Assembly (NCBI GenBank): GCA_963765785.1
Contig: CAVXXW010000010.1
Location: forward strand, 6,024-70,023
DNA: 64,000 bases
Direction: 5' to 3'
DNA from: an uncultured Actinomycetes bacterium
Lineage (GTDB): Bacteria; Actinomycetota; Thermoleophilia; Gaiellales; Gaiellaceae
Position 1 is the stretch's first letter, and each line of letters opens with the position of its first letter. A model generated the notes under the pieces. It was not told where the DNA came from. It searched no databases and saw nothing but the letters and a program-made list of their open reading frames with translations. Of the stretch, positions 5,540-51,113 are shown piece after piece. The position numbers were made by a program, and so were the translations under genes.

Positions 5540-6107
5540 CGGTCCGCTGCGTGGCGAAGGAGACGCCCTCGCGCTCGAGCGCGATTTGGACTTCCTCCCG
5601 CGCCTTGTAGATCCGCCACTTGACGGTCGCGAGGGTGACCTCGAGCGAGTCGGCGATCTCGGTGTACGAGAGGCCGACCACGTCGCGGAGCAGCAGCGCC
5701 ATCTTCAGGTCGGTGCTGAGGTCCTCGACCGCGCGCCAGAGCGCATCGATCTCCTCGAGCCGCTCGATCGGTGCGTCGAGCACCTCGAGGGGGGCGATGT
5801 CGTCGATCGCGACGAGAGCCCGCGGCCGCCGCTCGACCGCCCGCAGCTCGTCGAGCACGCGGTTCTTCGTCACCTGGAAGAGCCAGGTCGTGAACTTCGA
5901 GCGGAGCGAGAACTTCGGCAGGCCCTGGAAGACCCGCAGGAACACCTCCTGCGTCAGATCCTCGGCGAGCGCCCGGTCTCCGCCGACGAGGCGGAGCACG
6001 TAATTGAACACGGGCGTCTCGTAGGCGCGAAGGATGAGCGAGAACGCTCGCTCGTCACCCCGCTGCGCCTTCCGCAGAACGCCAAGATCGGGCTGGGCCA
6101 GTGACAA
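5520..6107 (-). CDS. ECF-type RNA polymerase sigma factor
   Basis: Region 2 (AEDLTQEVFLRVFQGL) and region 4 (LLLRDVVGLSYTEIADSLEVTLATVKWRIYKAREE). Confidence 0.85.
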   Translation of the reverse strand: MSLAQPDLGVLRKAQRGDERAFSLILRAYETPVFNYVLRLVGGDRALAEDLTQEVFLRVFQGLPKFSLRSKFTTWLFQVTKNRVLDELRAVERRPRALVAIDDIAPLEVLDAPIERLEEIDALWRAVEDLSTDLKMALLLRDVVGLSYTEIADSLEVTLATVKWRIYKAREEVQIALEREGVSFATQRTATAERI

Positions 6108-6159
6108 GGCCTGCGGAGTATAGACGGCGAAGTGGTCGTGCGCGACACCTCAAAATGGG

Positions 6160-7602
6160 CTAATTGCAGAGGTTTCGGCCGGTCATCTGTAAAGGTTTCC
6201 TTAGGCCGAGGTAAGCAATCACGGTCGGCGCCAGATCGCCGAGCTCGCCGTCCTCGACGCTCGCGGCGGGGTCGGTGACGATCAGAGGTACGCGATTCGT
6301 GGTGTGGGCGGTGTGCGGGCTCGTTCCGTCCTCCTCCAGCATCTGCTCGGCGTTGCCGTGGTCGGCGGTGATCAGCGCCACGCCGCCGAGTCGTTCGACC
6401 GTCTCGACCACCCGGCCGAGGCAGGCGTCGGCCGTCTCCACCGCCTGGACGACCGCCGGGATCACGCCCGTGTGGCCGACCATGTCGGGGTTGGCGAAGT
6501 TGACGACCGCGAACGCGTAGTCGCCGACCGCGAGCTCGGTGCAGAAGCGCGCGGCGACCTCCTCGGCCGACATCACGGGCTTCTTGTCGTACGTGCCGAC
6601 CTCGCGCGGGCTCGGGACGAGCAGGCGCGTCTCCCCCGGCCACTCCGCCTCGCGGCCGCCGTTGAAGAAGTAGGTCACGTGCGCGTACTTCTCCGTCTCG
6701 GCGGCGTGCAGCTGGCGCAGGCCGTGCTCGGACAGGACCTCGGCCAGCGTCTGGTCGACGTCCTGCTCGGCGAAGGCGACCCGCGTGTCGAGCTCGTCGC
6801 TGTAGCGCGTCATCGTCGTGACGTCGTAGTCGTCGTCGAGCAGCAGCTTCGTCAACTGGCGGGCGCGGTCGGGGCGGAAGTTGAAGAAGATCGCCGCGTC
6901 GCCGGGCTCGAGCCTCGGTCGGCCTCGGAGAACGACCGGCTCGACGAACTCGTCGGTCACGCCGCGCTCGTAGCTCGCCCGCACCGCCTCGACGGGATCG
7001 TCGGCCCGCTCGCCCTCGCCGGCGGTGATCGCCTCGAACGCTCGCTCGGTGCGGTCCCAGCGCTGGTCGCGGTCCATCGCGTAGTAACGGCCCGCGACGG
7101 TCGCGACCCGGTCGGCCGGCAACTCGGCCAGGTCGCGCTCGGCCGCGTGCGGCGAAACGTCGCGGCCGTCGGTGAACGCGTGGATCCACGTCCGCTCGGG
7201 CGCGAACTGCAGCAACGCCTTCAGGTGGTCGATGTGCGAGTGGACGCCGCCGTGGGAGACGAGGCCGAGCAGGTGGACGTTGCCGCCCTTTGCGAAGGCC
7301 GCCTTCAGCGCAGGGTTCTCGAAGAACGAGCCGTCCTCGATCGCTCGGTTGATCCGCTGCAGATCCTGGTCGAGCACGCGACCGGAGCCGATCGTCAGGT
7401 GGCCGACCTCGGAGTTCCCCATCTGGCCTTCCGGCAGGCCGACCGCCTCGCCCGAGGCCTTCAGCGTCGCGTGCGGATACACGGCCCAGAGCCGGTCGAA
7501 CACGGGCGTCTCGGCCAGGTCGATGGCGTTCCCCGGCCCGGGCGGCGCGCAGCCCCAGCCGTCGAGGATGAGAAGAACTACCGGTTTCAGGCCGCTCGGC
7601 AA
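6160..7602 (-). CDS. gpmI: 2,3-bisphosphoglycerate-independent phosphoglycerate mutase
   Basis: LKPVVLLILDGWG, GNSEVGH and ADHGNAE motifs; likely TTG start at 7602, overlapping the tpiA stop by 16 nt; the N-terminal part of the longer track ORF has no homology. Confidence 0.9.
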   Translation of the reverse strand: MPSGLKPVVLLILDGWGCAPPGPGNAIDLAETPVFDRLWAVYPHATLKASGEAVGLPEGQMGNSEVGHLTIGSGRVLDQDLQRINRAIEDGSFFENPALKAAFAKGGNVHLLGLVSHGGVHSHIDHLKALLQFAPERTWIHAFTDGRDVSPHAAERDLAELPADRVATVAGRYYAMDRDQRWDRTERAFEAITAGEGERADDPVEAVRASYERGVTDEFVEPVVLRGRPRLEPGDAAIFFNFRPDRARQLTKLLLDDDYDVTTMTRYSDELDTRVAFAEQDVDQTLAEVLSEHGLRQLHAAETEKYAHVTYFFNGGREAEWPGETRLLVPSPREVGTYDKKPVMSAEEVAARFCTELAVGDYAFAVVNFANPDMVGHTGVIPAVVQAVETADACLGRVVETVERLGGVALITADHGNAEQMLEEDGTSPHTAHTTNRVPLIVTDPAASVEDGELGDLAPTVIAYLGLRKPLQMTGRNLCN

Positions 7603-25010: not shown

Positions 25011-25056
25011 TAGTGCTCGACCAACTCCGCGCCCTCTTCGACCTCTATGACGAAGC

Positions 25057-25096
25057 TATGCGGATGAGAGGACTTGAACCTCCACGGGGTTCTGAG
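25057..25096 (-). repeat. tRNA 3'-end-like 40-bp sequence (att-like), copy 1
   Basis: The reverse complement reads CTCAGAACCCCGT-GGAGG-TTCAAGT-CCTCT-CATCCGC-A (T arm plus acceptor 3' strand). No 5' half is present. Identical to 31651..31690. Confidence 0.75.
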
Positions 25097-25213
25097 TGTA
25101 ATGGCCTGCCGCGGCGAGTCGTGACAGGAAGCCGGTTTGCGCCGGCCGAGGTGCCTCGGATCTCCCCGGTCCGAGTCGGTGTACGGACTGAGCGCGGACT
25201 AGACTCGGCTCTC

Positions 25214-25309
25214 GTGCAGGCCGAGAACGTCGCGCTGATCCCGAAGTGCGCGGAATGCGAGGGCGCGTACTGCCCGAAGTGCGCGGAGCGGGAGGTCGGC
25301 AACGGCTGA
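25214..25309 (+). CDS. zinc-ribbon mini-ORF, copy 1 (31 aa, internally deleted form)
   Basis: GTG start; VQAENVALIPKCAECEGAYCPKCAEREVGNG keeps both CxxC pairs; paralogous to 32038, 33938, 35725 and 35986. Confidence 0.45.
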   Translation: MQAENVALIPKCAECEGAYCPKCAEREVGNG

Positions 25310-25319
25310 CTCGCCGGAC

Positions 25320-25757
25320 CTGTTTCGGAACATCCTGGTCGGCATCGACGACTCGCCGTCCTCGCGGCGGGCGCTCGAGTATGCGATCGGACTCGCCCGA
25401 GCGGGCAATGCCAAGCTGACGCTGATGACAGTTGCGCCGCCGCCCTCGACTTACGTCACCCTGGGCGGGTTGAGCCCCGAGACGATGGGCGCCCAGTTGG
25501 ACAAGTGGGCGAGGGAGGCGTTGGAGGACGCCGCCCAACTCGTCCCTGACGACGTCATCGCGCACAAAGTGCAGGGCAGCGGCCAGGCAGGCCCCGCGAT
25601 CCTGAAGGAGGTCAAGCGTGGACAGTACGACCTGATCGTGCTCGGCTCCCGCGGGCGGGGGCGCGCACAGGAAGGCCTTCTCGGAAGCGTCAACGGCTAC
25701 CTCCACTTCCGCGCGCAGGTCCCGCTACTCACCGTGCCCGAGGAGAGCAGTACCTAG
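25320..25757 (+). CDS. universal stress protein (UspA family)
   Basis: FRNILVGIDDSPSSRRALEYA ... LIVLGSRGRG ... GSV motifs. The family-typical N-terminus has only CTG (25320) as a start; the first ATG is at 25425. Confidence 0.75.
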   Translation: MFRNILVGIDDSPSSRRALEYAIGLARAGNAKLTLMTVAPPPSTYVTLGGLSPETMGAQLDKWAREALEDAAQLVPDDVIAHKVQGSGQAGPAILKEVKRGQYDLIVLGSRGRGRAQEGLLGSVNGYLHFRAQVPLLTVPEESST

Positions 25758-25947
25758 CGTCCGGCTACGCCCCGTTCCCGTCGCCGCCTAGTCGCTCTTT
25801 CGGACATGGCGCGCAGCGTCTGTACCGCCTCCCAGTGCCAGCGCAGCGCCTCGGCGCTGGCCGCCTGGTGAACCCAAAACGGAGAGCGGCCCGATGGACG
25901 GGCCGCTCGACCGAGCACGCGACGGAGGTGTCGTGTGCGCTGTGCGA

Positions 25948-26310
25948 TTACTTGATCGTCAGCTTCAGGTGGTTGTCGTCGGGTGCCTGCTTGACCATCG
26001 TGATCTTGTAGACCCCCGTCGCCTTGAGCGTCAACGACGCCCCGACCTTCGCGTGCTTCGTGCCACCCGGGCCCTTGATAATCAGGGCGGCCTCGTCGAG
26101 GTTGACGAGCTTGACCGGGCCGCTGCGCGTGACCGTCTTGGCGTATTTGCGGTGATTCGGGCCTCCTGCGACGTAGAACCAGTGGCAGCCGGGGTCGTGC
26201 ATCGCGACGATGAGCTTGGTCGGCGTCACTGCGGCATGGTTCACCTGCGCGGCCGCAACCGGCACCGCCAGCATCAGGCCGGCGATCACCGTAAGAGTGA
26301 GTTTGCGCAT
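25948..26310 (-). CDS. small secreted protein, function unknown
   Basis: ATG at 26310 after GGAGG; signal peptide MRKLTLTVIAGLMLAVPVAAA. Confidence 0.65.
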   Translation of the reverse strand: MRKLTLTVIAGLMLAVPVAAAQVNHAAVTPTKLIVAMHDPGCHWFYVAGGPNHRKYAKTVTRSGPVKLVNLDEAALIIKGPGGTKHAKVGASLTLKATGVYKITMVKQAPDDNHLKLTIK

Positions 26311-26466
26311 AACTGCTACCTCCATCGCGTGTCGTTTCGCGAATCAGACACGCCAAGGGGCCACGCTTCGTCCGCGAAGACGCCGATCTAGCCCCGGGAG
26401 AACTAGGGATTCGGGCGGGAGGTGCTCCTCGGTTGTGGAGCGCGCCGCAGCTTCCGCGGGGGTCGG

Positions 26467-26584
26467 CTAGGGCCTAGCCGAGCTGATGCTTGTAGACGAT
26501 CGCCTGAGCCTGCGCCTGCCGCAGCGAAGCGCGCCCACGGGTAGATCGGGCAGCGGCGAGCCCTGAAGCCCGCCGCTGTTCGAC
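26467..26584 (-). pseudogene. remnant of the C-terminus of an HNH-like protein (paralog of 35245..35703)
   Basis: ...GIES... then LRQAQAQAIVYKHQLG*, compared with NGIEASLHRKLCNGTLTLRQARAQEIAYKHRFG* in the intact copy; frames are mixed. Confidence 0.4.
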
Positions 26585-27668
26585 TCAATGCCTAATGCAC
26601 GAGCGGATGCGTGCCCCAGTCGGGCGAACCCGTCTGGCGACCGCGTCGGTTCGTTGCAACCCAGGGCGTTGGGATCGGCGTTCGCGCCCCCGCAGGCCGA
26701 TGTCGGCTGGACGTTGATCTCATGCAGGCCGGTGCCGTCGGTATGCACGACCCAGATCGAGCTGTGCACGTCCGGCGTCACGTGTTGCGAGAAGACCGAT
26801 CTCGTTTCCCTGCGGCGACCAGCTGCCGAAGGAACTGAAATCGAGACCTGCAGGCGTGATCTGCTTGAGCCCGGTTCCGTTGATGTTGACGACGAACAAG
26901 GCGTCGACCGTCGTCCGCAGGAAGACGATCCGCTTCCCGTTCGGCGACCAGTCCCCGGGGATTGTCGTCGCCGCCGGGACTCGAGGTGATCTGCGTGAGG
27001 CCACCGCCATCGGAGGTTCGGATCGTGTGGATGCCGTTCTGACTGCCGTCATCGCTGAACGTCTCGCAGAGGAACAGCCTTCCGTCAGGCGACGGGCTGC
27101 CGCATGGATTGAAGAGCCCCGGGTACCCCGCGTCGACGATGCGGAACGTTCCGTCGTCGGGGTTGATGATCGTTGCGCCGCCGCCGAGCGACGACCCGCA
27201 GGTCGCAATATGGGCGCCTCCGAGAACCACATCGGGCACTCGCCGGTTTCCGTCGGTGCCTGGATGAGCCGCTGGCCCGTGCCGTCCGGGTTGACCAGGT
27301 AGACCTGCGTATCGCCGAGGTCCGGGTTGAACCGGGCGAACGTGAAGCCTTCGGCCGGGCGATAGACCTCGGCCGGAGTCCCGCTCACCGGATCAACATC
27401 GGCCGGGTGACGTTTCTCGAAGTTCGGCCCTGCAAGCCCCACGGGTCGGGTCGACGCCCGCGAGCCAGACGAGACCCTCTTCGACTCCGATTGTGGCCAC
27501 GGCGTAGAGCGTGTACATCGCTGAACGGCGACGTGCCTCCTCATCAGCCCACGCGATGACCGCATGCACGTCCTCTGCCTCGAGAACGCAGTGCTCGGCC
27601 GCCGCCCACATGACCTGCTCCTGCCCTCCTGCAGGAAGGTCCGACTCCGGGAGACGAGGCTGCCGCAA
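26585..27668 (-). pseudogene. TolB/PD40-like beta-propeller protein, fragmented by at least four frameshifts
   Basis: Motifs spread over three frames: FNPDLGDTQVYLVNPDGTGQRLI / SPSPDGRLFLCETF..IHTIRTSDGGGLTQIT / GDWSPNGKRIVFLR..LFVVNINGTGLKQIT / WSPQGNEI / IWVVHTDGTGLHEI. Confidence 0.6.
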
Positions 27669-27861
27669 AAGACCACGTAGAAGTCATGGATCGGCCGCAA
27701 CCAGAAACCCGCATGGGCCCGGCGCGACTCAATCCTCGCCGTCGCATCGTCTGCCGAGCCTAGCTGGGCTCCGGCTCGGAAAAGCGTTAGGGTGCCGCGC
27801 TGGGCAGGGCGTCCGGTCTACGCGCGGGCGATCAAGAACCCAGACATGAGGAGGGAGTCCT

Positions 27862-29445
27862 ATGAGAGTTCGTCAGCGACGATTGCTGATGACGTTGGTC
27901 CTCGCCGGGACGGTGGGAGTCTCGGCAATAGCAGCGCCGAGCGCCTCGGCAACCCTTAAGAGCTTGCCGAACGGCCAGATTGTGTCCTATCTCCCGCTGC
28001 GCTCGGCTCCATCCGGGCCGACCCCGTTCGACCTCGCGTTCAACAACATGGACTACAACGGCGGTCCGGTGATGCCGTCGAATACCGACTACATGCTGAT
28101 GTGGAGCCCGCAGGGCCTAGGGGCCTATCCGGACGGGTTCGTGTCCGGCATTGCCCGCTACTTCAATGACCTCGCCCACGACAACGGAGGCAACCAGAAC
28201 GTCGACTCGGTCGGGCCGCAGTACAACGACCTGACCGGCGCGGTCGCGAACTACGACGTGAGGTTCGGCGGCGTGCTGGTCGACACGGACCCGTACCCAG
28301 CGAGCCAGTGTCCGGTGAATGCCCCGGTGATTAACTGCCTGACCGACGCTCAGATTCAGCAGGAGATCGAGAGCTTCGTCACCGCTCGCCACCTGCCGAC
28401 GGATTTGAGCCAGGAGTACTTCCTGCTGACGCCTCCGCACGTCGAGAGCTGCTTCACCAACGACCCGACCCAGAACTTCGGAGGGTGTTCGGCCGGCATC
28501 GTCCCGGTAAGCCAGTTTGGTGCGTACTGCGCGTATCACCAGAACACGGCCACGCCGACGATGATCTTCTACGCGAACATGCCGTTCGACGCCACGAGCC
28601 CCTTTTGCCAGGACGGCAACTATCCGAACGGGCTGATCTCGGACGGCGAGATCAACGGCGGCCTCAGCCACGAGCACATGGAGTCGGTTACCGACCCGAT
28701 TCCGAACGACGCGTGGACCATCGGCGCCGGGCCGTTTCATGGGTTCGAGGTCGGCGACGTGTGCGTCGCCGACGTGGGCACGCCGCTCGGCACCGCGCCG
28801 AACGGCTCACCGTTCAACCAGGTGATCAACGGGCACCCTTACTGGTACCAGACGGAGTGGAGCAACTTCACCCACAGCTGCGTGCAGCGTGTGACGCTCC
28901 CCAAGCAACTGCCGAAAGCGAAGGAGACGGTCACCGCGGGCAACGGGACCGACATCACGTTCGACTCCACCAAATCGACGGCGCCAGGCGGCGTGGCCCA
29001 GTTCAGCTGGCAGTTCAATGCCGTTCTCGATGCCGAGACCGTCGAGCAGACGACGCCAACGACCACGTACACGTTCCCGGCGCCCGGCGCGTACTCCACC
29101 GGCGTGGCCGTGTTCAACGGCGACGGGCTATCGGCCGGAACCGGTGGGATCGTGGTCACGGGCAAGAACGGGTTCCAGCCGGCGTTCACGGTCTCGCAGG
29201 GTGCAGGCACCACGGTGAACTTCAGCGCGATCACGACCGTGAGTGGCAAGCCCGTTATCAACTACCTCTGGGAGTTCGGGGACGGCACAAGCGGGTCGGG
29301 GCCGACCCCGACGCACACCTATCAGCGACCAGGCTCCTACACGGTGACCGCAGTGCTGTTCAGCGGCGTCGGATCCGCCTTCCCAGGAGACGGCGCTGGA
29401 CCGATCTACCAGCAGAAGATCGCGGTCGGTGCGGGTCCCCACTAA
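27862..29445 (+). CDS. secreted protein: Cys-rich N-terminal domain of unknown function plus two PKD-like domains
   Basis: Signal peptide MRVRQRRLLMTLVLAGTVGVSAIAAPSASA; YNGGPVM and SHEHMESVTDP motifs; C-terminal repeats ending FGDGTSGSGPTPTHTYQRPGSYTVT. Confidence 0.8.
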   Translation: MRVRQRRLLMTLVLAGTVGVSAIAAPSASATLKSLPNGQIVSYLPLRSAPSGPTPFDLAFNNMDYNGGPVMPSNTDYMLMWSPQGLGAYPDGFVSGIARYFNDLAHDNGGNQNVDSVGPQYNDLTGAVANYDVRFGGVLVDTDPYPASQCPVNAPVINCLTDAQIQQEIESFVTARHLPTDLSQEYFLLTPPHVESCFTNDPTQNFGGCSAGIVPVSQFGAYCAYHQNTATPTMIFYANMPFDATSPFCQDGNYPNGLISDGEINGGLSHEHMESVTDPIPNDAWTIGAGPFHGFEVGDVCVADVGTPLGTAPNGSPFNQVINGHPYWYQTEWSNFTHSCVQRVTLPKQLPKAKETVTAGNGTDITFDSTKSTAPGGVAQFSWQFNAVLDAETVEQTTPTTTYTFPAPGAYSTGVAVFNGDGLSAGTGGIVVTGKNGFQPAFTVSQGAGTTVNFSAITTVSGKPVINYLWEFGDGTSGSGPTPTHTYQRPGSYTVTAVLFSGVGSAFPGDGAGPIYQQKIAVGAGPH

Positions 29446-29671
29446 CTAGAGATAACTGACAACCGATGGCCGACACTCGGACTTTGGTGATTGAGGGGCA
29501 GGTACGCATCCTCACCGCCAAAGTCCGGTGCCAGCTTAAGGTGTAACTCTGTAACTGCTGAGTTGCGTCAAAGCCTGACTGCGCTCTGACGACGGTACGC
29601 TCGGCCAGGCGACGTTGCTCTGCTGCGGCTCGTCTCTCGCGTCCGAGGAGGACGACTTCCACGCGCTTTTC

Positions 29672-30202
29672 TTAGGCGCTCCTCTGCGGCGGGGGCCAGG
29701 CGGAAGCGCTGACGACGCCCGGTAGAGCCTTCTCGAAGAGTGCGGCGAGGCGGACGAGCTCGTGCTTGGTGAGTCGGCCGGTGTAGAGCTCGCGCACCGT
29801 AGCGTGGTGGACGACTTGCGCGAGCCGTAGCGCCTCGAGCCCGGACTGGGTCAACGCAGCGAAGGCGGCGCGTCCGTCCGCCGGGTCGGGTTCCCGGCTA
29901 ACGAGACCCTGTTCCTCGAGGCGGAGGACCACTCGGGTGATTCCGCTCGGCGTGAGCATCCGCTGCGCGCCGAGGTCGCTCATGCGCAATCTCAGTCCGG
30001 GGGCGGTGACAAGCGTGATCAGGACGCCGTAGTCGGCGAGCGAGATCAGACCGTCGTGACGGAGGCGGCGGTCGATCTCGCGCATCACGGTTTCTCGGAG
30101 ACGGATCAGCCCTCGCCACGCGTCGAACTCCCCCGGACTGAGGGCCTCCGGCTCCGGCAACTCCTCGAGCCAGTGCTCGGGTTCGGATCGATTACTTGAC
30201 AT
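29672..30202 (-). CDS. MarR-family transcriptional regulator
   Basis: Winged HTH (LRMSDLGAQRMLTPSGITRVVLRLEEQGLVSREPDPADGRA). Confidence 0.85.
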   Translation of the reverse strand: MSSNRSEPEHWLEELPEPEALSPGEFDAWRGLIRLRETVMREIDRRLRHDGLISLADYGVLITLVTAPGLRLRMSDLGAQRMLTPSGITRVVLRLEEQGLVSREPDPADGRAAFAALTQSGLEALRLAQVVHHATVRELYTGRLTKHELVRLAALFEKALPGVVSASAWPPPQRSA

Positions 30203-30215
30203 GTTGAAATAACAT
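30196..30215. promoter_or_regulatory. AT-rich divergent MarR/cupin control region with TTGACA and a short palindrome
   Basis: TTGACA at 30196, followed by ATGTT-GAAAT-AACAT (30201-30215); I could not place a -10 element. Confidence 0.3.
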
Positions 30216-30287
30216 TTGCGAGCATCTACTTGCGTGTGTGAAGTATATCGACCGGCCCGGCCGGTCCTCCAGAAAAAGGGGATAGAA

Positions 30288-30758
30288 ATGACATCTCTTC
30301 AGACCAAGGTTCTCGCCCCAGGCGAAGGACTGCGACTCCAGTCCGGTCCAGGACGCGACCTCGTCTTCAAGGTCACCGGCGAGGACACCGACGGAGCGTT
30401 CGACTACTTCACCGTCGAAGTCGCTCCAAAGGGCGGGCCGCCGCTCCACGTCCACCACCATCAAGAGGAGACGATTCACGTTCTGAAGGGCCAGTACAAG
30501 ATCCAGATCGGTGACGAGACGTTCCACTGCACGGAAGGCGGCTTCGCCTACATGCCGTCGGGCGTCCCCCACGCGTTCCTCAACCTGACGGACGACCCGG
30601 GCGAGATCGTCGTGGTCTACACCCCGGGTGGCGGCCACAAGTTCTACGAAGAGCTAGGCCCGCTGACGCGAAATGGGACGCCCGACCGTGCAGCCGTCGC
30701 CGCCGTCTTCGAGAAGTACGACATGACACTACTGGGGCCGCCGCTGACCGATGACTGA
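30288..30758 (+). CDS. cupin-domain protein
   Basis: ATG at 30288 after AAAAAGGGGA; GPPLHVHHHQEE ... VPHAF cupin motifs. Confidence 0.8.
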   Translation: MTSLQTKVLAPGEGLRLQSGPGRDLVFKVTGEDTDGAFDYFTVEVAPKGGPPLHVHHHQEETIHVLKGQYKIQIGDETFHCTEGGFAYMPSGVPHAFLNLTDDPGEIVVVYTPGGGHKFYEELGPLTRNGTPDRAAVAAVFEKYDMTLLGPPLTDD

Positions 30759-30794
30759 ACCTGAACACCTCTGAGGCGCAAATGCACTGCCGGC

Positions 30795-31448
30795 TCATGT
30801 GACATTCGCGGACGCTGGCGCAGTGGGCGTTCTTGTAACCCGGCAGTAGGTTGGGTCACCGTGGCAGCGGGTTCGGGCCGGTCGCGTCACGAGGCGCTGC
30901 GGGACCCAGTCGTCGACGTGGACGAAGCCATCGAACGTCGCGCCCCCAAGGACGCAGGAGTCGTAGAGCGAACGGCGGTAGAACTTCACGTGGGTGAAGT
31001 CCTCGAAGAGCACGTAGTACGGCTCGGTGTCGGCGTTCTGGAACTGTTGCCCGGTCAGGACCGCTCGATGCTTGCGGGAGAAGGCGTCGACGTCCTCACC
31101 GACGACGACGCCGAGGTGCTCGAGGCCCATCCGGTAGACGCGTTGGTGAACGGGCGGGATGAGCTCGATGAGCGAAACCGGAGTCCCGTCGAGGACATCG
31201 AGCGGCTCGGCGAGGACGATCTTGAAGATCGGCCGGCCGTTCCAGACGCTCTCGAAATTGGCGGTCGCGTGGCGTTCCAGCAGGGTCCGCTGATGGACGT
31301 ACAGGTCCCAGTCGGGCACGCGCACTGCGAGATGGCTGAGGGCGTACGGCGCGATGTCGATGCCCCGCGCGATGAGCCGGTCGCGCTGCGTCACCGCGAA
31401 GGCTCGATAGTCCCCGATGATCTCGGCGATCGGATCAGACGTCACCAC
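30795..31448 (-). CDS. VOC/YecM-like metal-binding protein
   Basis: ORF 217 aa; LSHLAVRV...W and LEHLGVVV motifs reminiscent of the YecM/VOC fold; weak call. Confidence 0.55.
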   Translation of the reverse strand: MVTSDPIAEIIGDYRAFAVTQRDRLIARGIDIAPYALSHLAVRVPDWDLYVHQRTLLERHATANFESVWNGRPIFKIVLAEPLDVLDGTPVSLIELIPPVHQRVYRMGLEHLGVVVGEDVDAFSRKHRAVLTGQQFQNADTEPYYVLFEDFTHVKFYRRSLYDSCVLGGATFDGFVHVDDWVPQRLVTRPARTRCHGDPTYCRVTRTPTAPASANVT

Positions 31449-31650
31449 GTGACATCCTCCTCCGCGATAGTACGAGATGCACGGCCGAACACACGGTCCC
31501 GGGTCGGTCTCACGTAGGTAGTCAGTTCCCCGGGCGCGACGCTCTCAGGAGGCACTCGACCTACCCTGCCATCTGCTGGCTCCCCCACGTTTACGGACTG
31601 AGCGCGGACGGACGGGCGGCTAACCGCACGGAACCCCTGCACGTCTCACG

Positions 31651-31690
31651 TATGCGGATGAGAGGACTTGAACCTCCACGGGGTTCTGAG
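31651..31690 (-). repeat. tRNA 3'-end-like 40-bp sequence (att-like), copy 2
   Basis: 40/40 identical to 25057..25096; no 5' tRNA half is adjacent. Confidence 0.75.
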
Positions 31691-32037
31691 GGCTGTGGCG
31701 GTATCTGGCGAACCGTGGCGGGAAGCGGGTTCGCGGCTCATCTCGCTGACGGCCTAGGCGCTGTTTCGGGCCGGGTTTGTGGACTGAGCGTGGACTAATT
31801 CGGCGGCATCCAGCACCGGCGGTGTACGGCCGCGTCCGTGAGGAACCGCGGACTGGCCAGTCAGCGGCACCTCGAACGCCAAGACGGGCGCGGCCTCCTA
31901 AGTCGACGCGCTCGCCGTCTGCTTCTTGCGCACTGGTGGGTCTGCTCGCCGTCGGGGCGGCCCCCCAGCCGCCACACGCTTCCGGCGCCCGTCCGGTGCC
32001 TAGTCCCGACCGGCGGGTTGCGTCGTACACTCGGCCG

Positions 32038-32227
32038 ATGCCTCTCGAGAACGTCGCGCTGGTCCCGCAGTGCACGGAGTGCAAGGCCGCATGGTTGCCG
32101 GCTGACGAAGAGCGCTGGGAAGCGCACCTCGGCGTGCGACGAGAATCTCGACGAGCCGGCCGAGGTCGTCTTCTACTGTCCGGAGTGCGCTGCGCGGGAG
32201 TTCGGGGGAGTAAAGAGTGGGGCCTAG
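32038..32227 (+). pseudogene. zinc-ribbon mini-ORF, copy 2, split by one extra nucleotide (about 32134)
   Basis: MPLENVALVPQCTECKAAWLPADEERWEAHLG in one frame and CDENLDEPAEVVFYCPECAAREFGGVKSGA* in the +1 frame; length 190 nt (3n+1). Confidence 0.55.
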
Positions 32228-32779
32228 CGCCGAGACCACAGTTGGCCAGAACTGAGGACCTATTGGCGCTCGACCCTAAGCGCGCCGCATCGGCCCCACT
32301 CGTCAAGATTCCCAGACTCGGCGGTCTCCTGTCCATGGGCCGTCTGACCCATCTTCCTACCCGTGGAGGCCTAGGAGCGCTCCGCTCCGCGCGCGAGACG
32401 AGACCCGCCGCCCTAGCCGCCAGCGCCCCTCTGCCTAGCTAAGAGACCAAGGCATCGGGGGCGAGTGCTGGCCCACCCGTCCCCGATGGCCGTGACACTA
32501 CGGCGCCGCGAACGCGCTTCCCTTTGGCCCGTTTGCGCTCACCTCGCTTGCCCAAGCCCGGACTGCGCGGCCTGCGATTTCGGCGGCGGCTGACCGCGTC
32601 AATGCCCGCTCGGCGTTTGCCGGCGGACTGGTCCGAAAAGGAAAGGGCGGCCCGTCGGCCGCCCCGTACTTTGCGCGTCCGTCCGTCTCTGCGGCCAAGG
32701 CGGCCGGTCTGCGCTGACCCATGGTGTGACGGCCCGGCGGCCCGTGCCTCCCCATGAAGGGGGATATCTCCAGGCAACG

Positions 32780-32810
32780 CGAAACGGGGCCGCCGCCTGG
32801 CCCCGTTTCG
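32780..32810. other. perfect 12-bp stem / 7-nt loop hairpin in an ORF-poor stretch
   Basis: CGAAACGGGGCC-gccgcct-GGCCCCGTTTCG. Confidence 0.5.
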
Positions 32811-33336
32811 AGTCTCCCGTGAGAGAGAGCCGCAGGTAAGTCGTCAGGCCCCGCCGCATTGAGGCCCTTCGTGTCTTCCGAGGTCGCCCCCGCCGCATCG
32901 GGGCGCGTCTCGGTTGCACGAGCAGTATCGGGTCGGGGGTGGCTGGTTGATCCATCACCCTTCTACGGTTGACTGCCTCACTTGACACGGAAGACCAGCG
33001 ATGGGACTCGTGGCGGTCGAAGATGAGCCACACGGCCGATGGTGCTCCGAATCGTTGCTCGTCATGCTCGTGCCGTGAGGTTCTGCGGCCGAAACTCCTC
33101 GCCAGCGTCTGCCTCGTCATCGCCGCGGCGGCGGCCGTGCTCGCGTTGAGGGCGGCACAGGCGACGGCGCAGGGCGTGAGGAAGCGCCCTGCACGTGGGG
33201 GGCGTCATCGGTCAGCGCCGAGGAAGTGGACGGGAAGGACGTCGTCTCGCCAGCAGCGACCTCCGGCTGCATTCCTAAGTAACGATCTGCGCCTGCAGAG
33301 CGCTCGACCTTCGACGGTCGCGGCCGGTTCCGTGAG

Positions 33337-33361
33337 GGGCCGGGCGGCGAGCCGAACGCCC
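33337..33361. repeat. 25-nt repeat GGGCCGGGCGGCGAGCCGAACGCCC, copy 1
   Basis: Identical to 39288..39312; contains the small hairpin CGGGCG-N10-CGCCC(G). Confidence 0.7.
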
Positions 33362-33722
33362 TCGCGCGTGTAGGTGCTTCCCCCGATGCGCATCACCGCA
33401 GCCCGGCGACATAGTCGGAGCGTGAGCCGGGGCCGCCAGAGGCCGCCGCGCACTTCCCCGTGGCCTGCCGAAGGGGTGGTCACCCGGGGGGCTGACGGAA
33501 GCCTCAGGCCCCGGGGCCGCCCTATCCCCCACCCCCGTGGTGAGGCCCGCCGAACTCTCCCGCGATCTCAGCAGAGAGGTCACCGGGCGTCCTGACGGTC
33601 AGCCTCTACCCCGGCTCGCGCTCTCCGGAACCTTGAAGGGCCCGCCTGAAGATCGCCCGCGGATGGCCCTGTGGATACGACGAGACAGGCTCGGCGATGA
33701 GCGAGGGGTGGATGCAGCTGGA

Positions 33723-33881
33723 CTAGCGGCCAAGCCTCGTTCTGCGGCGGATGCCGAGACGCCCCTGCATAGCCTTGTCTTCGGCTCCGTCTTTCCGGGC
33801 CGCCCAGACGAACACGGCTCCAATGATCGCCAGCGGCACGAGGACCGCGACGAGCGCGATGATTCCGGCAGCGCTGGTCAT
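33723..33881 (-). CDS. possible 52-aa single-TM peptide
   Basis: MTSAAGIIALVAVLVPLAIIGAVFVWAARKDG...; no clear RBS. Confidence 0.3.
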   Translation of the reverse strand: MTSAAGIIALVAVLVPLAIIGAVFVWAARKDGAEDKAMQGRLGIRRRTRLGR

Positions 33882-33937
33882 CCGCGAAAGTGTCGCACGG
33901 ATCTTCAAGCCGGCAGGGCCGGGCGCTTGCTGAAACA

Positions 33938-34063
33938 CGTTGCGGTGGCTCACGTGCCGGTATTCGCCCCCCGATCGCGGCGATGGCGCTCGCGGCGCGC
34001 GTGATGCTGCTGCCGCAGCCGCTCTGCCCGGACTGCGCTGCGCGCGAGTTTGGGCACTCATGA
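33938..34063 (+). pseudogene. zinc-ribbon mini-ORF, copy 3 (degenerate)
   Basis: Only the C-terminal ...LLPQPLCPDCAAREFGHS* is retained. The upstream VAVAHVP...RRW lies in another frame and the first CxxC is lost. Confidence 0.35.
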
Positions 34064-34258
34064 GAACGAGGAGGAGCGAGCGGCCAAGCGCAAGAAAGCG
34101 CGCGACTGCGGCGTCTGTTTAGACAAGCCGGGCGGCCGGCCATCCACCGGGGTTTTGGCGGCATTTCCCCGTTAGGGGGAGAACGGTCGCCCGGTTATTA
34201 CAGGGTCGCACTGTCCGAGGCCGCCCGGTAGCTGGCCGTCGGGGGAGTTCGCAGCTTC

Positions 34259-34498
34259 CTAGAACGACCCGACGAGCGCCCGCAGAACACGCACGGCCTC
34301 CCGTCGCGGCTCGTGCGGTAAAGCCGAGAGAGCCGACACCGCGAGCGCGACGTCGCTCAGCGTCGGCTCGCACTCCTGCAGGTAGCGCTCGAGCCAGCGG
34401 ACCGCGACCCTCGGTAGGCGCTTGGGCTCCTTCGCCGCGATCAGGATCGTCAGCTCGAGCGCTTCGACGAGGCTGATCCGGCCGAGCTCCCGCGCCAA
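34259..34498 (-). CDS. hypothetical helical protein (79 aa)
   Basis: TTG start. A coding-like frame continues upstream without a start codon. A diverged partial paralog lies at 39745-39900. Confidence 0.5.
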   Translation of the reverse strand: MARELGRISLVEALELTILIAAKEPKRLPRVAVRWLERYLQECEPTLSDVALAVSALSALPHEPRREAVRVLRALVGSF

Positions 34499-34714
34499 GC
34501 CTTCGGCGACGACAATGCCGTGCTGGAGTGCTCGAGCAAGACGGTCGTGGACGGCCCTGCGAGGTCGACGTGCTCCTCCCCGGGGCCGGACGGCGTGAGG
34601 AGCCTAAGAGCACTCTGTCGGTTGGCGAGATACTGCGCGGTAGAAACGGCGCTGGCATGAATCGGATCTGACTGGGCGCAGCGCGGAAGATCCAACGCGG
34701 GAGGAGTAAGACAC

Positions 34715-34906
34715 GTGGCTGAGCGCAGGTACGGCGGGATAACCCTTGGCGGGATCATCGTCATTCTCGGGATCATCCTGATCATTGTCTGGAGCTTCTG
34801 GATCGGGCTCATCGTCACGCTCATCGGGCTCATCGCCTTTGCGGGTTCGCGCGGGGCAAGTGGTACTGAGCCGGCTTTCGCAGGTTCGACTAGTACTCGG
34901 GCTTAG
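34715..34906 (+). CDS. small two-TM membrane protein (63 aa)
   Basis: GTG after GGGAGGAG; GGIIVILGIILIIVWSFWIGLIVTLIGLIAFAG. Confidence 0.55.
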   Translation: MAERRYGGITLGGIIVILGIILIIVWSFWIGLIVTLIGLIAFAGSRGASGTEPAFAGSTSTRA

Positions 34907-35174
34907 GTGAGATCGGCACGCGGGCAGCCTGGCGGAGGCTTCGCAGTCCTTCCGCCAGTTGGAGCTCGGTGTCGGCCACATCGAGGCAAAGCAGCAGCTC
35001 CTGCCGCATCTCCTCATCCGCGAGGACATCCGGCTGCCCCGAATCGGCCTGCAGCACTCGCGCTAGCTCAGACTGGAGTGCCAGCAGAGCCAGATTGCGT
35101 TCGATGAGCAGGTCGTGCAGCTCGTTTGCCTCAGCCCGCGTCAGCGGCAACTTTCGCGCGCCGAGAATCATCAC
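34890..35174 (-). CDS. hypothetical protein (94 aa)
   Basis: ORF only; helical, Leu/Glu-rich; no RBS seen. Confidence 0.35.
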   Translation of the reverse strand: MMILGARKLPLTRAEANELHDLLIERNLALLALQSELARVLQADSGQPDVLADEEMRQELLLCLDVADTELQLAEGLRSLRQAARVPISPKPEY

Positions 35175-35244
35175 TACGGACGGCCCTATGAGGTCGACGG
35201 TTCCCTCCTTCTTGGGGGCGAGACGGCGCGAGTGAGTCTACGGA

Positions 35245-35703
35245 CTAGCCGAAGCGATGCTTGTAGGCGATCTCCTGCGCCCGCGCCTGCCGCAGCGTCA
35301 GCGTTCCGTTGCAGAGCTTCCGGTGAAGGCTTGCCTCGATGCCGTTGTCATCGCGCCGAGCCTGCGTCCACGGCTGCGGCCAGAGGTTCCGCGTCGCGCG
35401 GGGAGCGCCGCCGAGCTCGAGGCTAACGAGGTGGTCCTCCTCGAAGTGGCTCGGGTTCAGGTCGGCGTACTGAAATAGAACGAGCTGCTTCTTCTTCAAC
35501 GCGTTCGTGTAGCTCGCCGGCGGTCGTATCGTCTTCGTCCAGCCGACGCGACAGACGGTCTTGAAGAGCGTCTTCTGCGTCACGGCCGAGTAGCGGACCC
35601 CCGGCGTGTGCGTCGGCAGGATCAGCGCAGCACTCGACGCGAGCGCGCCAGCCGCGACGACCGCCGCGGCGACGAGAGCGAGAAGTACGACGCGCCCACG
35701 CAT
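35245..35703 (-). CDS. secreted/anchored HNH-like nuclease-fold protein
   Basis: N-terminal hydrophobic segment; EEDHLVSLELGG ... NLWPQP motif, as in small actinobacterial HNH-like proteins. Confidence 0.65.
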   Translation of the reverse strand: MRGRVVLLALVAAAVVAAGALASSAALILPTHTPGVRYSAVTQKTLFKTVCRVGWTKTIRPPASYTNALKKKQLVLFQYADLNPSHFEEDHLVSLELGGAPRATRNLWPQPWTQARRDDNGIEASLHRKLCNGTLTLRQARAQEIAYKHRFG

Positions 35704-35724
35704 GTCGGGAACGGACGATAGCCC

Positions 35725-35922
35725 CTGTCGCCCGCTCTAGAGTCGCGTCATGGAGTCGTCGCGCTCGTCCCGAAGTGCGTGGAGTGCAAAGCCGTCTGGC
35801 TCCCTGCCGACTCAGAGCGTTGGCGCGCATACCTCGGCTGCAGCGAGGATCTCGATGGGCCGGCGGAGGTCTTCTTCTACTGCCCTGAGTGCGCGGAGCA
35901 CGCGTTCGGCAGCGACTCCTAG
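35725..35922 (+). CDS. zinc-ribbon mini-ORF, copy 4 (only apparently intact full-length copy)
   Basis: ...VALVPKCVECKAVWLPADSERWRAYLGCSEDLDGPAEVFFYCPECAEHAFGSDS*. The only in-frame start is CTG at 35725; the ATG at 35750 is out of frame. Confidence 0.5.
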   Translation: MSPALESRHGVVALVPKCVECKAVWLPADSERWRAYLGCSEDLDGPAEVFFYCPECAEHAFGSDS

Positions 35923-35985
35923 AAGGTCTTACACCCCTCACCTGGCCCAGATGGACGCTTACATGCGCCTGTCTGCCTTCGTAAA

Positions 35986-36166
35986 GTGGGCCAATGGTCT
36001 GCGCGGGTCGTTGCCTTCATCCCTAACTGCGTCGAGTGCGGCGAAAGCTGGTTGCCCGCGGAACACCGACCGGTGGCAGGCGTACTGGGTCGACGACGGG
36101 CCGGTGGACGTGTTGCTCTTCTACTGCGCGGCGTGCGCGAAGCGCGAGTTCGGCGAGAAGTCGTAG
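35986..36166 (+). pseudogene. zinc-ribbon mini-ORF, copy 5, split by one extra nucleotide (about 36067)
   Basis: VGQWSARVVAFIPNCVECGESWLPAEH in one frame and DRWQAYWVDDGPVDVLLFYCAACAKREFGEKS* in the +1 frame; length 181 nt (3n+1). Confidence 0.5.
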
Positions 36167-39287: not shown

Positions 39288-39312
39288 GGGCCGGGCGGCG
39301 AGCCGAACGCCC
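39288..39312. repeat. 25-nt repeat GGGCCGGGCGGCGAGCCGAACGCCC, copy 2
   Basis: Identical to 33337..33361; lies 12 nt after the stop of a start-less TPR-like C-terminal fragment (...AQNYLAQGKKAMARKDLERILAEDSSYEGVREQLAALT*). Confidence 0.7.
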
Positions 39313-39430
39313 GGGCGCTGCAACGCGACCCGACCCGAGCTCACGCTACGCCCCGCTCGCGCCGACTCCTAGTGGCCCTCTCGGGCATGCGCCGTAGCGT
39401 CTGCACCGCCTCCTGGTAGCCGGCGCACTC

Positions 39431-39646
39431 CTACGCGGCGGGCTCGTACAGAAGCCGCAGCGTGAGGTCGACCGAGAACCCGAACTCAAGAAAGCGGACG
39501 GCCTCCTCCTCGGGGACCTCCACCTGGGCCGCCAAGACGAGAGCCGCGCAGGGCGTCGCGCCCGCGTTCACAAAGAGGTTCAAGCGCCGGCGAAGTAGGC
39601 ACTCGACCTCAGCCGCAGTCAACCGCTCAAATTCTGCCGCAGTCAC
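39431..39646 (-). CDS. hypothetical small protein (71 aa)
   Basis: GTG-start ORF; no family recognised. Confidence 0.35.
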   Translation of the reverse strand: MTAAEFERLTAAEVECLLRRRLNLFVNAGATPCAALVLAAQVEVPEEEAVRFLEFGFSVDLTLRLLYEPAA

Positions 39647-39744: not shown

Positions 39745-39900
39745 CGCAACGGCTTTAGAACGACCCGACAAGCGACCGCAGCACGGGCACAGCCTCGGCC
39801 CGATGCTCGCCGAGCACGGCGGAGACCGAGCGTGTCTGCCAGGGCACGCCTTCGGGGCGGGGATCCCCGACGAGGAAGGAGTCGCGCTTTTTCCGAGGGG
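39745..39900 (-). pseudogene. diverged or truncated paralog of the 79-aa protein at 34259
   Basis: ...SVSAVLGEHRAEAVPVLRSLVGSF* versus ...LPHEPRREAVRVLRALVGSF*; the last ~45 nt are nearly identical at DNA level. Confidence 0.3.
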
Positions 39901-49185: not shown

Positions 49186-49420
49186 GACGATAGGCGCCCG
49201 AGCGAACCGCCCAAGTGACGGAGTGACGCAGAGTGAACGTCACCCCAAACTGCCGTACAGGGCAGGGCCGGAGCGGTGAGCCACCGGACCGGATCGTCGA
49301 GCTCTAACTGATAGCCGCCCCCGACAAGGTCAGCGCGCTGACGAACCCGTAAACGTCCTTCGTGAGTCGAACACGCTTACGACGCGGGGGTCAGCGAGCT
49401 TAGGGCGAAGGACGCTCGCG

Positions 49421-49450
49421 TGGGCCAGTGTTCGGGAATGCCCTCTGAGG
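49421..49450 (+). repeat. intergenic motif TGGGCCAGTGTTCSGGAATGMCCYCTGAG, copy 1
   Basis: Three same-orientation copies at 49421, 50280 and 51083. Confidence 0.75.
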
Positions 49451-50252: not shown

Positions 50253-50279
50253 TCGGGTCAAGGAGACATGCTCGCTCGC

Positions 50280-50308
50280 CTGGGCCAGTGTTCCGGAATG
50301 ACCCCTGA
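50280..50308 (+). repeat. intergenic motif, copy 2
   Basis: TGGGCCAGTGTTCCGGAATGACCCCTGAG; contains the 8-bp palindrome TTCCGGAA. Confidence 0.75.
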
Positions 50309-51026: not shown

Positions 51027-51082
51027 GTCTTAAGGCTAGTGAGGCACCGTGGTCGTCGCCACGAGGGTGAATAACCCTGGGC

Positions 51083-51113
51083 TGGGCCAGTGTTCGGGAA
51101 TGACCCCCTGAGG
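51083..51113 (+). repeat. intergenic motif, copy 3
   Basis: TGGGCCAGTGTTCGGGAATGACCCCCTGAGG. Confidence 0.75.

Follow-up and report, generated by a model that had tools for sequence, protein, structure and literature searches.

What five tiny, cysteine-bearing open reading frames (ORFs) scattered between unrelated genes are, and how they came to lie where they do, is the question raised by a stretch of 64,000 nucleotides (nt) from an uncultured bacterium of the Gaiellaceae (Actinomycetota; Thermoleophilia; Gaiellales). This stretch, hereafter the window, covers positions 6,024 to 70,023 of contig CAVXXW010000010.1 in the GenBank assembly GCA_963765785.1. An original prediction, made from the letters alone, had described the ORFs as paralogous copies of a zinc-ribbon peptide of about 60 amino acids (aa) and had supposed that they represent a mobile-element accessory or addiction-type gene; the family of these zinc-ribbon mini-genes is named ZR here. 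All five copies in the window are inactivated, each by a different lesion, and the best explanation of the whole, which we consider probable, is that they are pseudogene relics of an island-borne gene family, left behind by serial integration at a tRNA-Leu(CAG) gene.

The copies were located with two kinds of profile. A protein hidden Markov model (HMM), derived from the repaired window copies and metagenome homologues, was run against all six frames of the 64 kb, and a DNA profile for nhmmer was derived from 38 intact homologues. Both find five sites on the plus strand and no others, as had been predicted, except that four of them are strong and the third is recognised by its C-terminal end only. 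Strong matches of the protein HMM lie at 32038-32209 (in two frames), 35749-35913 and 35995-36157 (in two frames); copy 1 is matched at 25217-25261 (E=1e-3), and further weak matches lie at 25268-25303 and 34025-34057. With nhmmer, the E-values are 2.7e-37 for copy 2, 3.4e-32 for copy 4 and 2e-24 for copy 5, while copy 1 is found as two halves (E=1.2e-7 and 2.2e-5) and copy 3 only at 34024-34055 (5e-3); the best other match in the 64 kb has an E-value of only 0.7. In addition, ungapped repeat finding groups the copies (repeat families D1, D2 and D5).

ZR is a real gene under purifying selection. The repaired translation of copy 2 has 25 homologues of 44-76 aa with 61-83% identity and E-values down to 6e-24, all of them from metagenomes or metagenome-assembled genomes (MAGs) and all unnamed ("hypothetical protein"). 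When a profile of the family was searched widely, as the original prediction had proposed, homologues proved to be abundant beyond the locus: among 1.84 billion representatives, 989 clusters at 50% identity match at E<=1e-3, of which 226 reach E<=1e-10. The best 150 of the 989 clusters measure 169 aa at most, and domain fusions were ruled out among the longer matches: in these, either the ORF is extended upstream or a single ORF spans two ZR copies. A metagenome scan gave at least 292 confirmed ZR stretches, and 30 MAG loci carry the gene under the titles Gaiellaceae, Thermoleophilia, Actinomycetota or uncultured Actinomycetes; a single genome can have as many as four of these loci. The ratio of non-synonymous to synonymous substitutions (dN/dS; Nei-Gojobori, NG86) has a median of 0.38 in 15 copies including those of the window and of 0.28 in 38 intact copies, where 689 of 689 pairs lie below 1 and the mean pairwise differences at codon positions 1, 2 and 3 are 0.21, 0.20 and 0.40; synonymous changes are thus clearly in excess and not equal in frequency to non-synonymous ones. 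Decay is nevertheless common across the family, since 142 copies comprise 85 full-length single-frame copies, 10 split across frames and 47 partial ones. Among 55 distinct full-length sequences, 44 keep all four cysteines and 38 keep the start codon as well. The family, which the first reading of the window had not recognised, is a conserved coding family without a match in curated libraries, and a literature search gave nothing on it. ZR constitutes a large unannotated small-protein family (about 1000 clusters at 50% identity), for which neither Pfam nor NCBIfam nor PHROG has a model and which is specific to a group of soil Actinomycetota that is abundant but has hardly any cultured members.

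ZR proteins are 53-62 aa long (typically about 57) and have the consensus xxxxxVALxPxCxECxAxWLPADxxRWxAxxxxDEPxExxFYCPxCAEREF, of which the motif WLPAD(E/D)xRWxAYL...DEPxExxFYCPxCAEREF is peculiar to the family. The cysteines C12, C15, C47 and C50 are invariant in the alignment A1 and nearly so in the alignment A2, the spacing between CxxC and CPxC is 27-31 residues, and intact members are strongly acidic, with a median isoelectric point (pI) of 4.15 and a net charge of about -9.5. An AlphaFold2 model from a 20-sequence alignment (predicted local distance difference test 80.2, predicted template modelling score 0.62) has two knuckles and a β-hairpin with strands at 29-32 and 44-47, followed by a C-terminal helix at 49-56. 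The predicted fold is therefore that of a generic zinc ribbon; metal binding is likewise predicted, and iron would also be possible. Scans against Pfam, NCBIfam, PHROGs and PADLOC gave no match above threshold, and the weak sub-threshold matches in Pfam and NCBIfam cover the second knuckle and are all far below gathering scores. Foldseek against the PDB and BFVD gave nothing below E=1e-3 and only generic small ribbon proteins at E>0.01, and a sequence-profile search of the PDB gave chance-level matches only (2nb9, E=0.04; AcrIC4, E=0.2). With generic zinc ribbons such as Pfam Zn_ribbon_TFIIS and the small proteins HVO_2753 and HVO_0758, ZR shares the two CxxC knuckles, a length of 50-60 aa and the predicted β-hairpin fold, but it differs from them in its far sub-threshold scores, its own motif and its strong negative charge.

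The features of the window are collected in Table 1. Copy 1 has lost the profile positions ~17-45, as positions 2-16 lie at 25217-25261 and positions 46-57 at 25268-25303, which amounts to a deletion of 87 nt and agrees with the in-frame deletion noticed before. A copy at the same position in the related locus L024 (1282; related loci are denoted by L numbers) also begins with VQAENVAL and is the first gene inside a displaced tRNA core there, but it is broken differently; from this comparison we infer that the two copies probably decayed independently after a shared insertion. The extra nucleotides reported for copies 2 and 5 are both present: in copy 2, HMM positions 1-34 (32038-32139) and 32-57 (32132-32209) fall in different frames, and so do positions 1-24 (35995-36066) and 21-57 (36056-36157) in copy 5. 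Copy 3, described from the start as degenerate, has statistical support for its C-terminal ~12 codons only (protein HMM E=0.064); it is 87% identical to copy 2 over 31 nt (repeat family D2). Copy 4 had been thought to be intact only if it starts at CTG, which does not hold, since a normal -10 box and an ATG are present and a frameshift in codon 3 separates them from the rest of the gene. Its upstream region and first codons are near-identical to those of the intact L042 homologue P0013 (MESVALVPKC...), which reads TAGAGTcgcgtcATG GAG TCC GTC GCG where copy 4 reads ATG GAG TC-GTC GCG, and because of this one missing C the ATG is out of frame. The remaining reading frame (35749-35919) is intact (HMM positions 3-57, E=1.4e-33), so that copy 4 would either be truly frameshifted or owe the missing base to a sequencing error. 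A 138-aa ORF at 35750-36166 (+) is a chance chimera of the out-of-frame copy 4 ATG, the spacer and the C-terminal half of copy 5 in frame.

Table 1. Features of the window (positions in the 64,000-nt stretch)
Feature	Position	Strand	Remarks
Displaced tRNA-Leu(CAG) 3' fragment no. 1	25055..25091	-	attachment (att) core, left edge of island; 37/37 identical to L029 7445-7481, 34/34 to L008 8067-8100
Motif M (ACGGACTGAGCGCGGAC, 17 nt)	25183..25199	+	94 nt inside core; directly upstream of copy 1 -10 box
ZR copy 1	25214..25309	+	GTG start; TAGACT -10 box at 25200-25205; in-frame deletion of ~29 codons fuses the two CxxC knuckles; pseudogene
Motif M	31593..31609	+	exact copy; 42 nt before core no. 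2, at tRNA-proximal end of 6.6-kb unit
Displaced tRNA-Leu(CAG) 3' fragment no. 2	31651..31685	-	att core between two island units; repeat family D19
ZR copy 2	32038..32227	+	ATG start; TACACT -10 box at -12; one extra base at ~32134, frameshift; pseudogene
ZR copy 3	33938..34063	+	degenerate stump; recognisable part 34004-34063, ending in LCPDCAAREFGHS and stop
C2 family gene, 79 aa	34259..34498	-	convergent with copy 3; recurrent but not obligatory downstream neighbour of ZR
152-aa protein	35245..35703	-	divergent from copy 4; hydrophobic, signal-peptide-like N-terminus, read by eye
ZR copy 4	35750..35922	+	TAGAGT -10 box at 35738-35743; ATG at 35750; 1-nt deletion in codon 3 puts ATG out of frame
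ZR copy 5	35995..36166	+	TAAAGT -10 box; TGG at start-codon position; one extra base at ~36066-36067; pseudogene

Programmed frameshifting was considered for the broken frames and rejected as unlikely, because the shift sites differ between copies and do not fall at one fixed site; several of the breaks lie at about profile positions 32-37, in an acidic loop whose length also varies between subfamilies. Synonymous divergence (dS) among copies 2, 4 and 5 is 0.75-0.94, and they are therefore old paralogues that were acquired separately and not local duplicates. The copies of the window are dead and have no functional consequence here.

The place of the copies is explained by the DNA around them. 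The GC content of the window is 0.70-0.74 up to about 22 kb and 0.63-0.69 after about 24 kb; long unbroken ORFs, the largest of 924 aa, take up the first 24 kb, and the bcp-side flank (20.3-24.4 kb) is syntenic with the loci L008 and L029, where a short island follows and then an intact tRNA-Leu(CAG); an S8-peptidase-like gene is also seen in these two loci. What had been noticed as tRNA-like repeats are displaced 3' ends of tRNA-Leu(CAG), 100% identical to its 3' 35-37 nt in the syntenic MAG loci, the reference stretches of L029 and L008 being the 3' end of the tRNA-Leu(cag) called by ARAGORN. Two exact copies of the core occur in the window, against 0.02 expected. Between them lies a core-to-core unit of 6.6 kb (25090-31650) without an integrase, which contains copy 1, a Usp fragment, a PKD-domain protein, a YecM-like gene, an ORF read by eye as MarR-like and one more ORF. 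Within this unit, the stretch 26400-27860 has overlapping ORFs in several frames and no clean gene, and looks like a decayed pseudogene. A second unit begins at 31686 with copy 2, and copies 3-5 lie in a gene-poor stretch at 31.4-37.6 kb. Intact tRNA-Leu genes are present in L008, L024, L029 and L036. Because integrases occur in related loci and none was found among the ORFs scanned at 24-64 kb, the window holds integrase-less remnants. Integrase-less, cis-mobilisable remnants (CIMEs) are among the nearest known parallels.

A second element of these islands is the 17-nt motif M. Besides the two copies in Table 1, it was observed in the window at 31779-31795, in L024 at 1251 and in L029 at 5971 and 7389. 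The spacing of 94-95 nt between core and motif is conserved in the window, L024 and L029, and the arrangement of motif, 42 nt and core is found also beside the intact tRNA-Leu in L029 (7389-7405 and 7447). Since direct repeats on both arms of a reconstructed attP resemble arm sites, motif M can be regarded as a candidate arm-type site for the integrase. The motif overlaps the promoter region of ZR, and in L029 the order in a mini-island of 1.6 kb is core, motif M, ZR and intact tRNA-Leu. Another short repeat, the hairpin GGCGGCGAGCCGAACGCCC (stem CCGGGCG/CGCCCGG, 10-nt loop), occurs in the window at 33343-33361 and 39294-39312 and also in L001, L008, L024, L040, L042, L083 and L105, and abuts the ZR -10 box in L014 and L017; it might serve as a terminator, as a REP-like element or in recombination as a site.

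Related loci show that ZR is cargo of islands at the 3' ends of tRNA genes. A tRNA or transfer-messenger RNA (tmRNA) gene lies within 6 kb of ZR in 19 of the 30 MAG loci, compared with a rough expectation of ~15-20% for a 12-kb interval. Wherever a tRNA is present (27 loci), the closest one points its 3' end at ZR without exception, which is the orientation that insertion of DNA at tRNA 3' ends would produce. In L001, ZR lies in a 16-kb island between a tRNA-Pro gene and its 43-nt displaced fragment; the island also has genes for an integrase, HTH_17 proteins and Prim-Pol/AAA_25 replication, and ZR sits in mid-island, 7 kb from the integrase. Integrase homologues are found 0.4-1 kb from ZR in L041 and L054, and also nearby in L057, L021, L121 and L017. 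Moreover, L123 has a serine recombinase and a prohead-protease remnant, Prim-Pol or AAA_25 genes accompany HTH_17 genes in L001 and L041, and L042 has AAA_25 as a faint match. The mobile-element part of the original prediction is thus borne out by the position of ZR on the 3' side of tRNA and tmRNA genes, by displaced tRNA fragments and by the tyrosine integrase, serine recombinase and replication genes of related loci. ZR is a clean sequence marker for the integrative islands of this group.

Most ZR copies have a -10 box of their own. For a survey, 81 distinct 5' ends were aligned to the profile, and position 1 is occupied by ATG, GTG or TTG in 61 of them. Of these 61 distinct copies, 29 have a TANNNT hexamer beginning at -12 or -13 from the start codon, against 0.36 per position elsewhere; it reads TAGACT 19 times and TACACT 6 times, and it ends 6-7 nt before the start codon. 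In the window, this -10 box is kept at copies 1, 2, 4 and 5. In Actinobacteria, TANNNT at such a distance is the signature of leaderless mRNA, and because of this box ZR is probably transcribed as a leaderless mRNA.

The course of events would then be as follows. ZR would be carried as cargo by elements of Gaiellales/Thermoleophilia (Actinomycetota) whose integration sites are the 3' ends of tRNA or tmRNA genes. Related elements would have accumulated serially at tRNA-Leu(CAG), each leaving a displaced tRNA end of 35-37 nt, and the ZR gene with its own promoter would thus have come to sit, twice, about 125-350 nt inside such an end. Later, integrases would have been lost and the islands would have decayed, each ZR copy gaining a different lesion. 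In this respect the window illustrates tandem accretion and decay at tRNA-Leu, to which the displaced att cores, the candidate arm sites and the unit without an integrase belong. The protein family is new but of a familiar kind, and the tRNA island array is ordinary though well preserved.

Several observations weigh against this explanation. No att fragment adjoins copies 3-5, no integrase or other mobility gene was found among 40 ORFs scanned at 24-64 kb, and ARAGORN detects no tRNA gene anywhere in the 64 kb; the array's far end lies outside the window. ZR was absent from GenBank phages and PLSDB plasmids (tblastn) and from IMG/VR (scan), which means that no known gene of a phage or plasmid corresponds to it; an autonomous ZR-carrying element was not seen in free form either. 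Furthermore, the orientation of ZR and its distance to the tRNA vary between loci, so that it is not a fixed component of the att site, and the molecular function is drawn only from charge, size and context.

The Islander database defines genomic islands integrated at tRNA and tmRNA genes (PMC4383910), and tandem arrays of such islands are the nearest known counterpart of the window. Like those islands, the window has displaced 3' tRNA fragments as direct repeats that mark island ends, a 6.6-kb unit bounded by two identical cores and a GC content (0.65-0.69) below that of the upstream core (0.70-0.74). In the syntenic L008, L024 and L029, an intact tRNA-Leu is found at the other end, and integrases are present in related loci. 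Unlike the Islander islands, the window has neither an integrase nor an intact tRNA, and its array is old and heavily decayed.

As to what ZR does, it has no obligate partner gene and is a solo gene. All plausible ORFs of 117 loci were clustered and proximity was counted in 102 dereplicated ZR copies, and no neighbour family lies within 1.5 kb of more than ~12% of them. The recurrent small neighbours are the families A63, C2, C3 and C4 and a protein with a signal-peptide-like N-terminus, and none of these has a Pfam match. A63 is an acidic protein of 63 aa (MAGFLFRLETxDGxPAxPxTLxAAVPNWxxGDxIxLGxRTLRVVxxRDDDADQPPVLIVEE) that is multi-copy and often frameshifted in the same islands as ZR. It lies upstream on the same strand in 6 of 64 dereplicated copies with at least 1.5 kb of upstream flank, and it is absent from the window.

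Other explanations of the five ORFs and of their family have to be weighed against that of island-borne relics. There is next to no chance that the conserved stretch is a DNA or RNA element in which the ORF is incidental; although short non-coding repeats (motif M and the hairpin) travel with the islands, this idea is refuted by the substitution pattern, with dN/dS of 0.28-0.38 and third codon positions twice as variable, and start and stop codons are conserved, cysteine, tryptophan and proline residues are invariant, and Rfam gives no match in the window. It is also quite unlikely that some lesions are single-base sequencing errors and that one or more copies, above all copy 4, are intact. 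Copies 2, 4 and 5 are indeed each one base from an open frame, and the lesion of copy 4 is a C lost from a CC pair. However, the three neighbouring core genes have open frames and follow the order of their orthologues in L008, the long ORFs run uninterrupted through the first 24 kb, comparable decay occurs in independent assemblies, and neither the 87-nt deletion of copy 1 nor the stump of copy 3 nor the lost start codon of copy 5 is a base-call error. A third possibility is that ZR serves the att site itself, as a recombination directionality factor (RDF) or a regulator of integration and excision beside attP. In tRNA-Leu islands, the gene that comes first after the displaced core is ZR, motif M directly adjoins the ZR -10 box at copy 1 of the window as well as in L024 and L029, and an integrase is 0.4-1 kb away in L041 and L054. 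Known RDFs of tyrosine integrases, though, are small, basic, DNA-bending proteins of the HTH_17 or Xis-like type, while ZR, at its acidic pI of 4.15 and net charge of -9.5, matches neither HTH_17 nor Xis; in addition, the elements in L001 and L041 already have HTH_17 genes, and ZR is remote from the integrase in L001 and not constant in position and orientation between loci, so that such a role has little probability.

Two further proposals concern the role of the protein. An addiction system, in which ZR and a partner gene together would stabilise the element, is very improbable. Like type II toxin-antitoxin systems, ZR is small, multi-copy, island-borne and often degraded, which holds in part for A63 too, and an upstream ORF is occasionally tight: A63 ends 11 nt before the ZR start in L006 (5340-5531), L023 (3722-3913) and L041 (1716-1907), and a 117-aa protein in L008, whose N-terminus resembles a signal peptide, overlaps the ZR start by ATGA. 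Unlike them, ZR has no conserved partner, A63 being upstream in so few copies, no family exceeding ~12% and A63 missing from the window; ZR and A63 are both acidic, most ZR copies have their own -10 box with a predicted leaderless promoter, and no toxin or antitoxin match was found for ZR in Pfam, NCBIfam or PADLOC, nor any Pfam match for A63. The addiction-type reading of the original prediction is consequently not upheld for a very acidic protein of ~57 aa whose window copies are dead. A rubredoxin-like or redox-switch metalloprotein, acting in the stress physiology of the host and not in element biology, is very unlikely as well. Rubredoxin is similar to ZR in size, acidity and the CxxC...CPxC spacing of 27-31 residues, and stress-type genes (Usp, an ECF sigma factor and DUF1232) are nearby, but the Gly after each knuckle of rubredoxin (CxxCG...CPxCG) is absent, no Rubredoxin match in Pfam at E<=10 and no rubredoxin among the Foldseek PDB matches was obtained, no redox partner gene recurs, and the location in tRNA-flanking islands together with the high pseudogene rate speaks against a housekeeping role. 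A precedent for a zinc-ribbon redox protein is the chaperone Ruc of M. tuberculosis (PMC7448276).

Within the preferred explanation, in which ZR is element cargo, a function can be suggested only tentatively. The small size, the four cysteines, the acidity, the solo leaderless promoter, the carriage by elements and the rapid decay on chromosomes fit best with a protein-docking, element-encoded small inhibitor or modulator of an enzyme of the host or of a rival element, and this is a possible but doubtful reading. A net charge of about -9.5 on ~57 residues suggests, with low confidence, that ZR does not bind nucleic acids. ZR would be useful to the element at entry and dispensable to the host, which would explain the decay of chromosomal copies. 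The gyrase inhibitor YacG and zinc-finger proteins of the TraR/DksA type are small, acidic four-cysteine proteins that bind protein and not DNA, and those of the TraR type are encoded by mobile elements. ZR recalls them, as a lead, in its ~55-75 aa, four cysteines and acidity; it differs in giving no YacG or zf-dskA_traR match at E<=10 in Pfam and NCBIfam, in another cysteine spacing and in lacking a coiled coil. More specifically, and this is unlikely, ZR might be a new family of element-encoded, strongly acidic zinc-ribbon inhibitors, which could for instance mimic DNA, counter a defence system or block an enzyme of the host. It would be expressed from a leaderless mRNA immediately at entry, the overlap with motif M in the tRNA-Leu elements letting integrase occupancy of attP gate its expression. 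If ZR does inhibit a host or defence enzyme, it would, as a conjecture, add a new fold class to element-encoded counter-measures.

The remaining neighbours of ZR are small genes. C2 proteins (79-96 aa) occur in 14 loci and lie on the opposite strand, 3-6 nt from the ZR match, in L054, L058 and L101. Small helical ORFs of the C2 and C4 families (C4 of 71-79 aa) are seen in the window at 34259-34498 (-) and 39431-39646 (-), with remnants at 25764-25832, 39345-39413 and 39756-39809; fragments of both are scattered in the island and recur beside ZR in metagenome loci, while C3, a family of ~108 aa with FLCECxxxxC that comes in tandem pairs, is confined to related loci. The 152-aa protein at 35245-35703 had been labelled HNH-like, which was not confirmed, as it has no Pfam match even at E<=10; homologues are found near ZR in L001, L008, L014 and L042. 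The one in L008 is the 117-aa protein mentioned above (5651-6004), whose overlap with the ZR start (6001-6168) suggests translational coupling in that one locus, whereas the two genes are divergent in the window. Finally, farther along the window, a core of about 30 nt, CTGGGCCAGTGTTCGGGAATGACCCCTGAG, occurs three times (49402-49443, 50262-50303 and 51064-51105) at distances of ~800-860 nt, flanking Peptidase_S51 and HlyIII genes, and may be an operator or another intergenic repeat.

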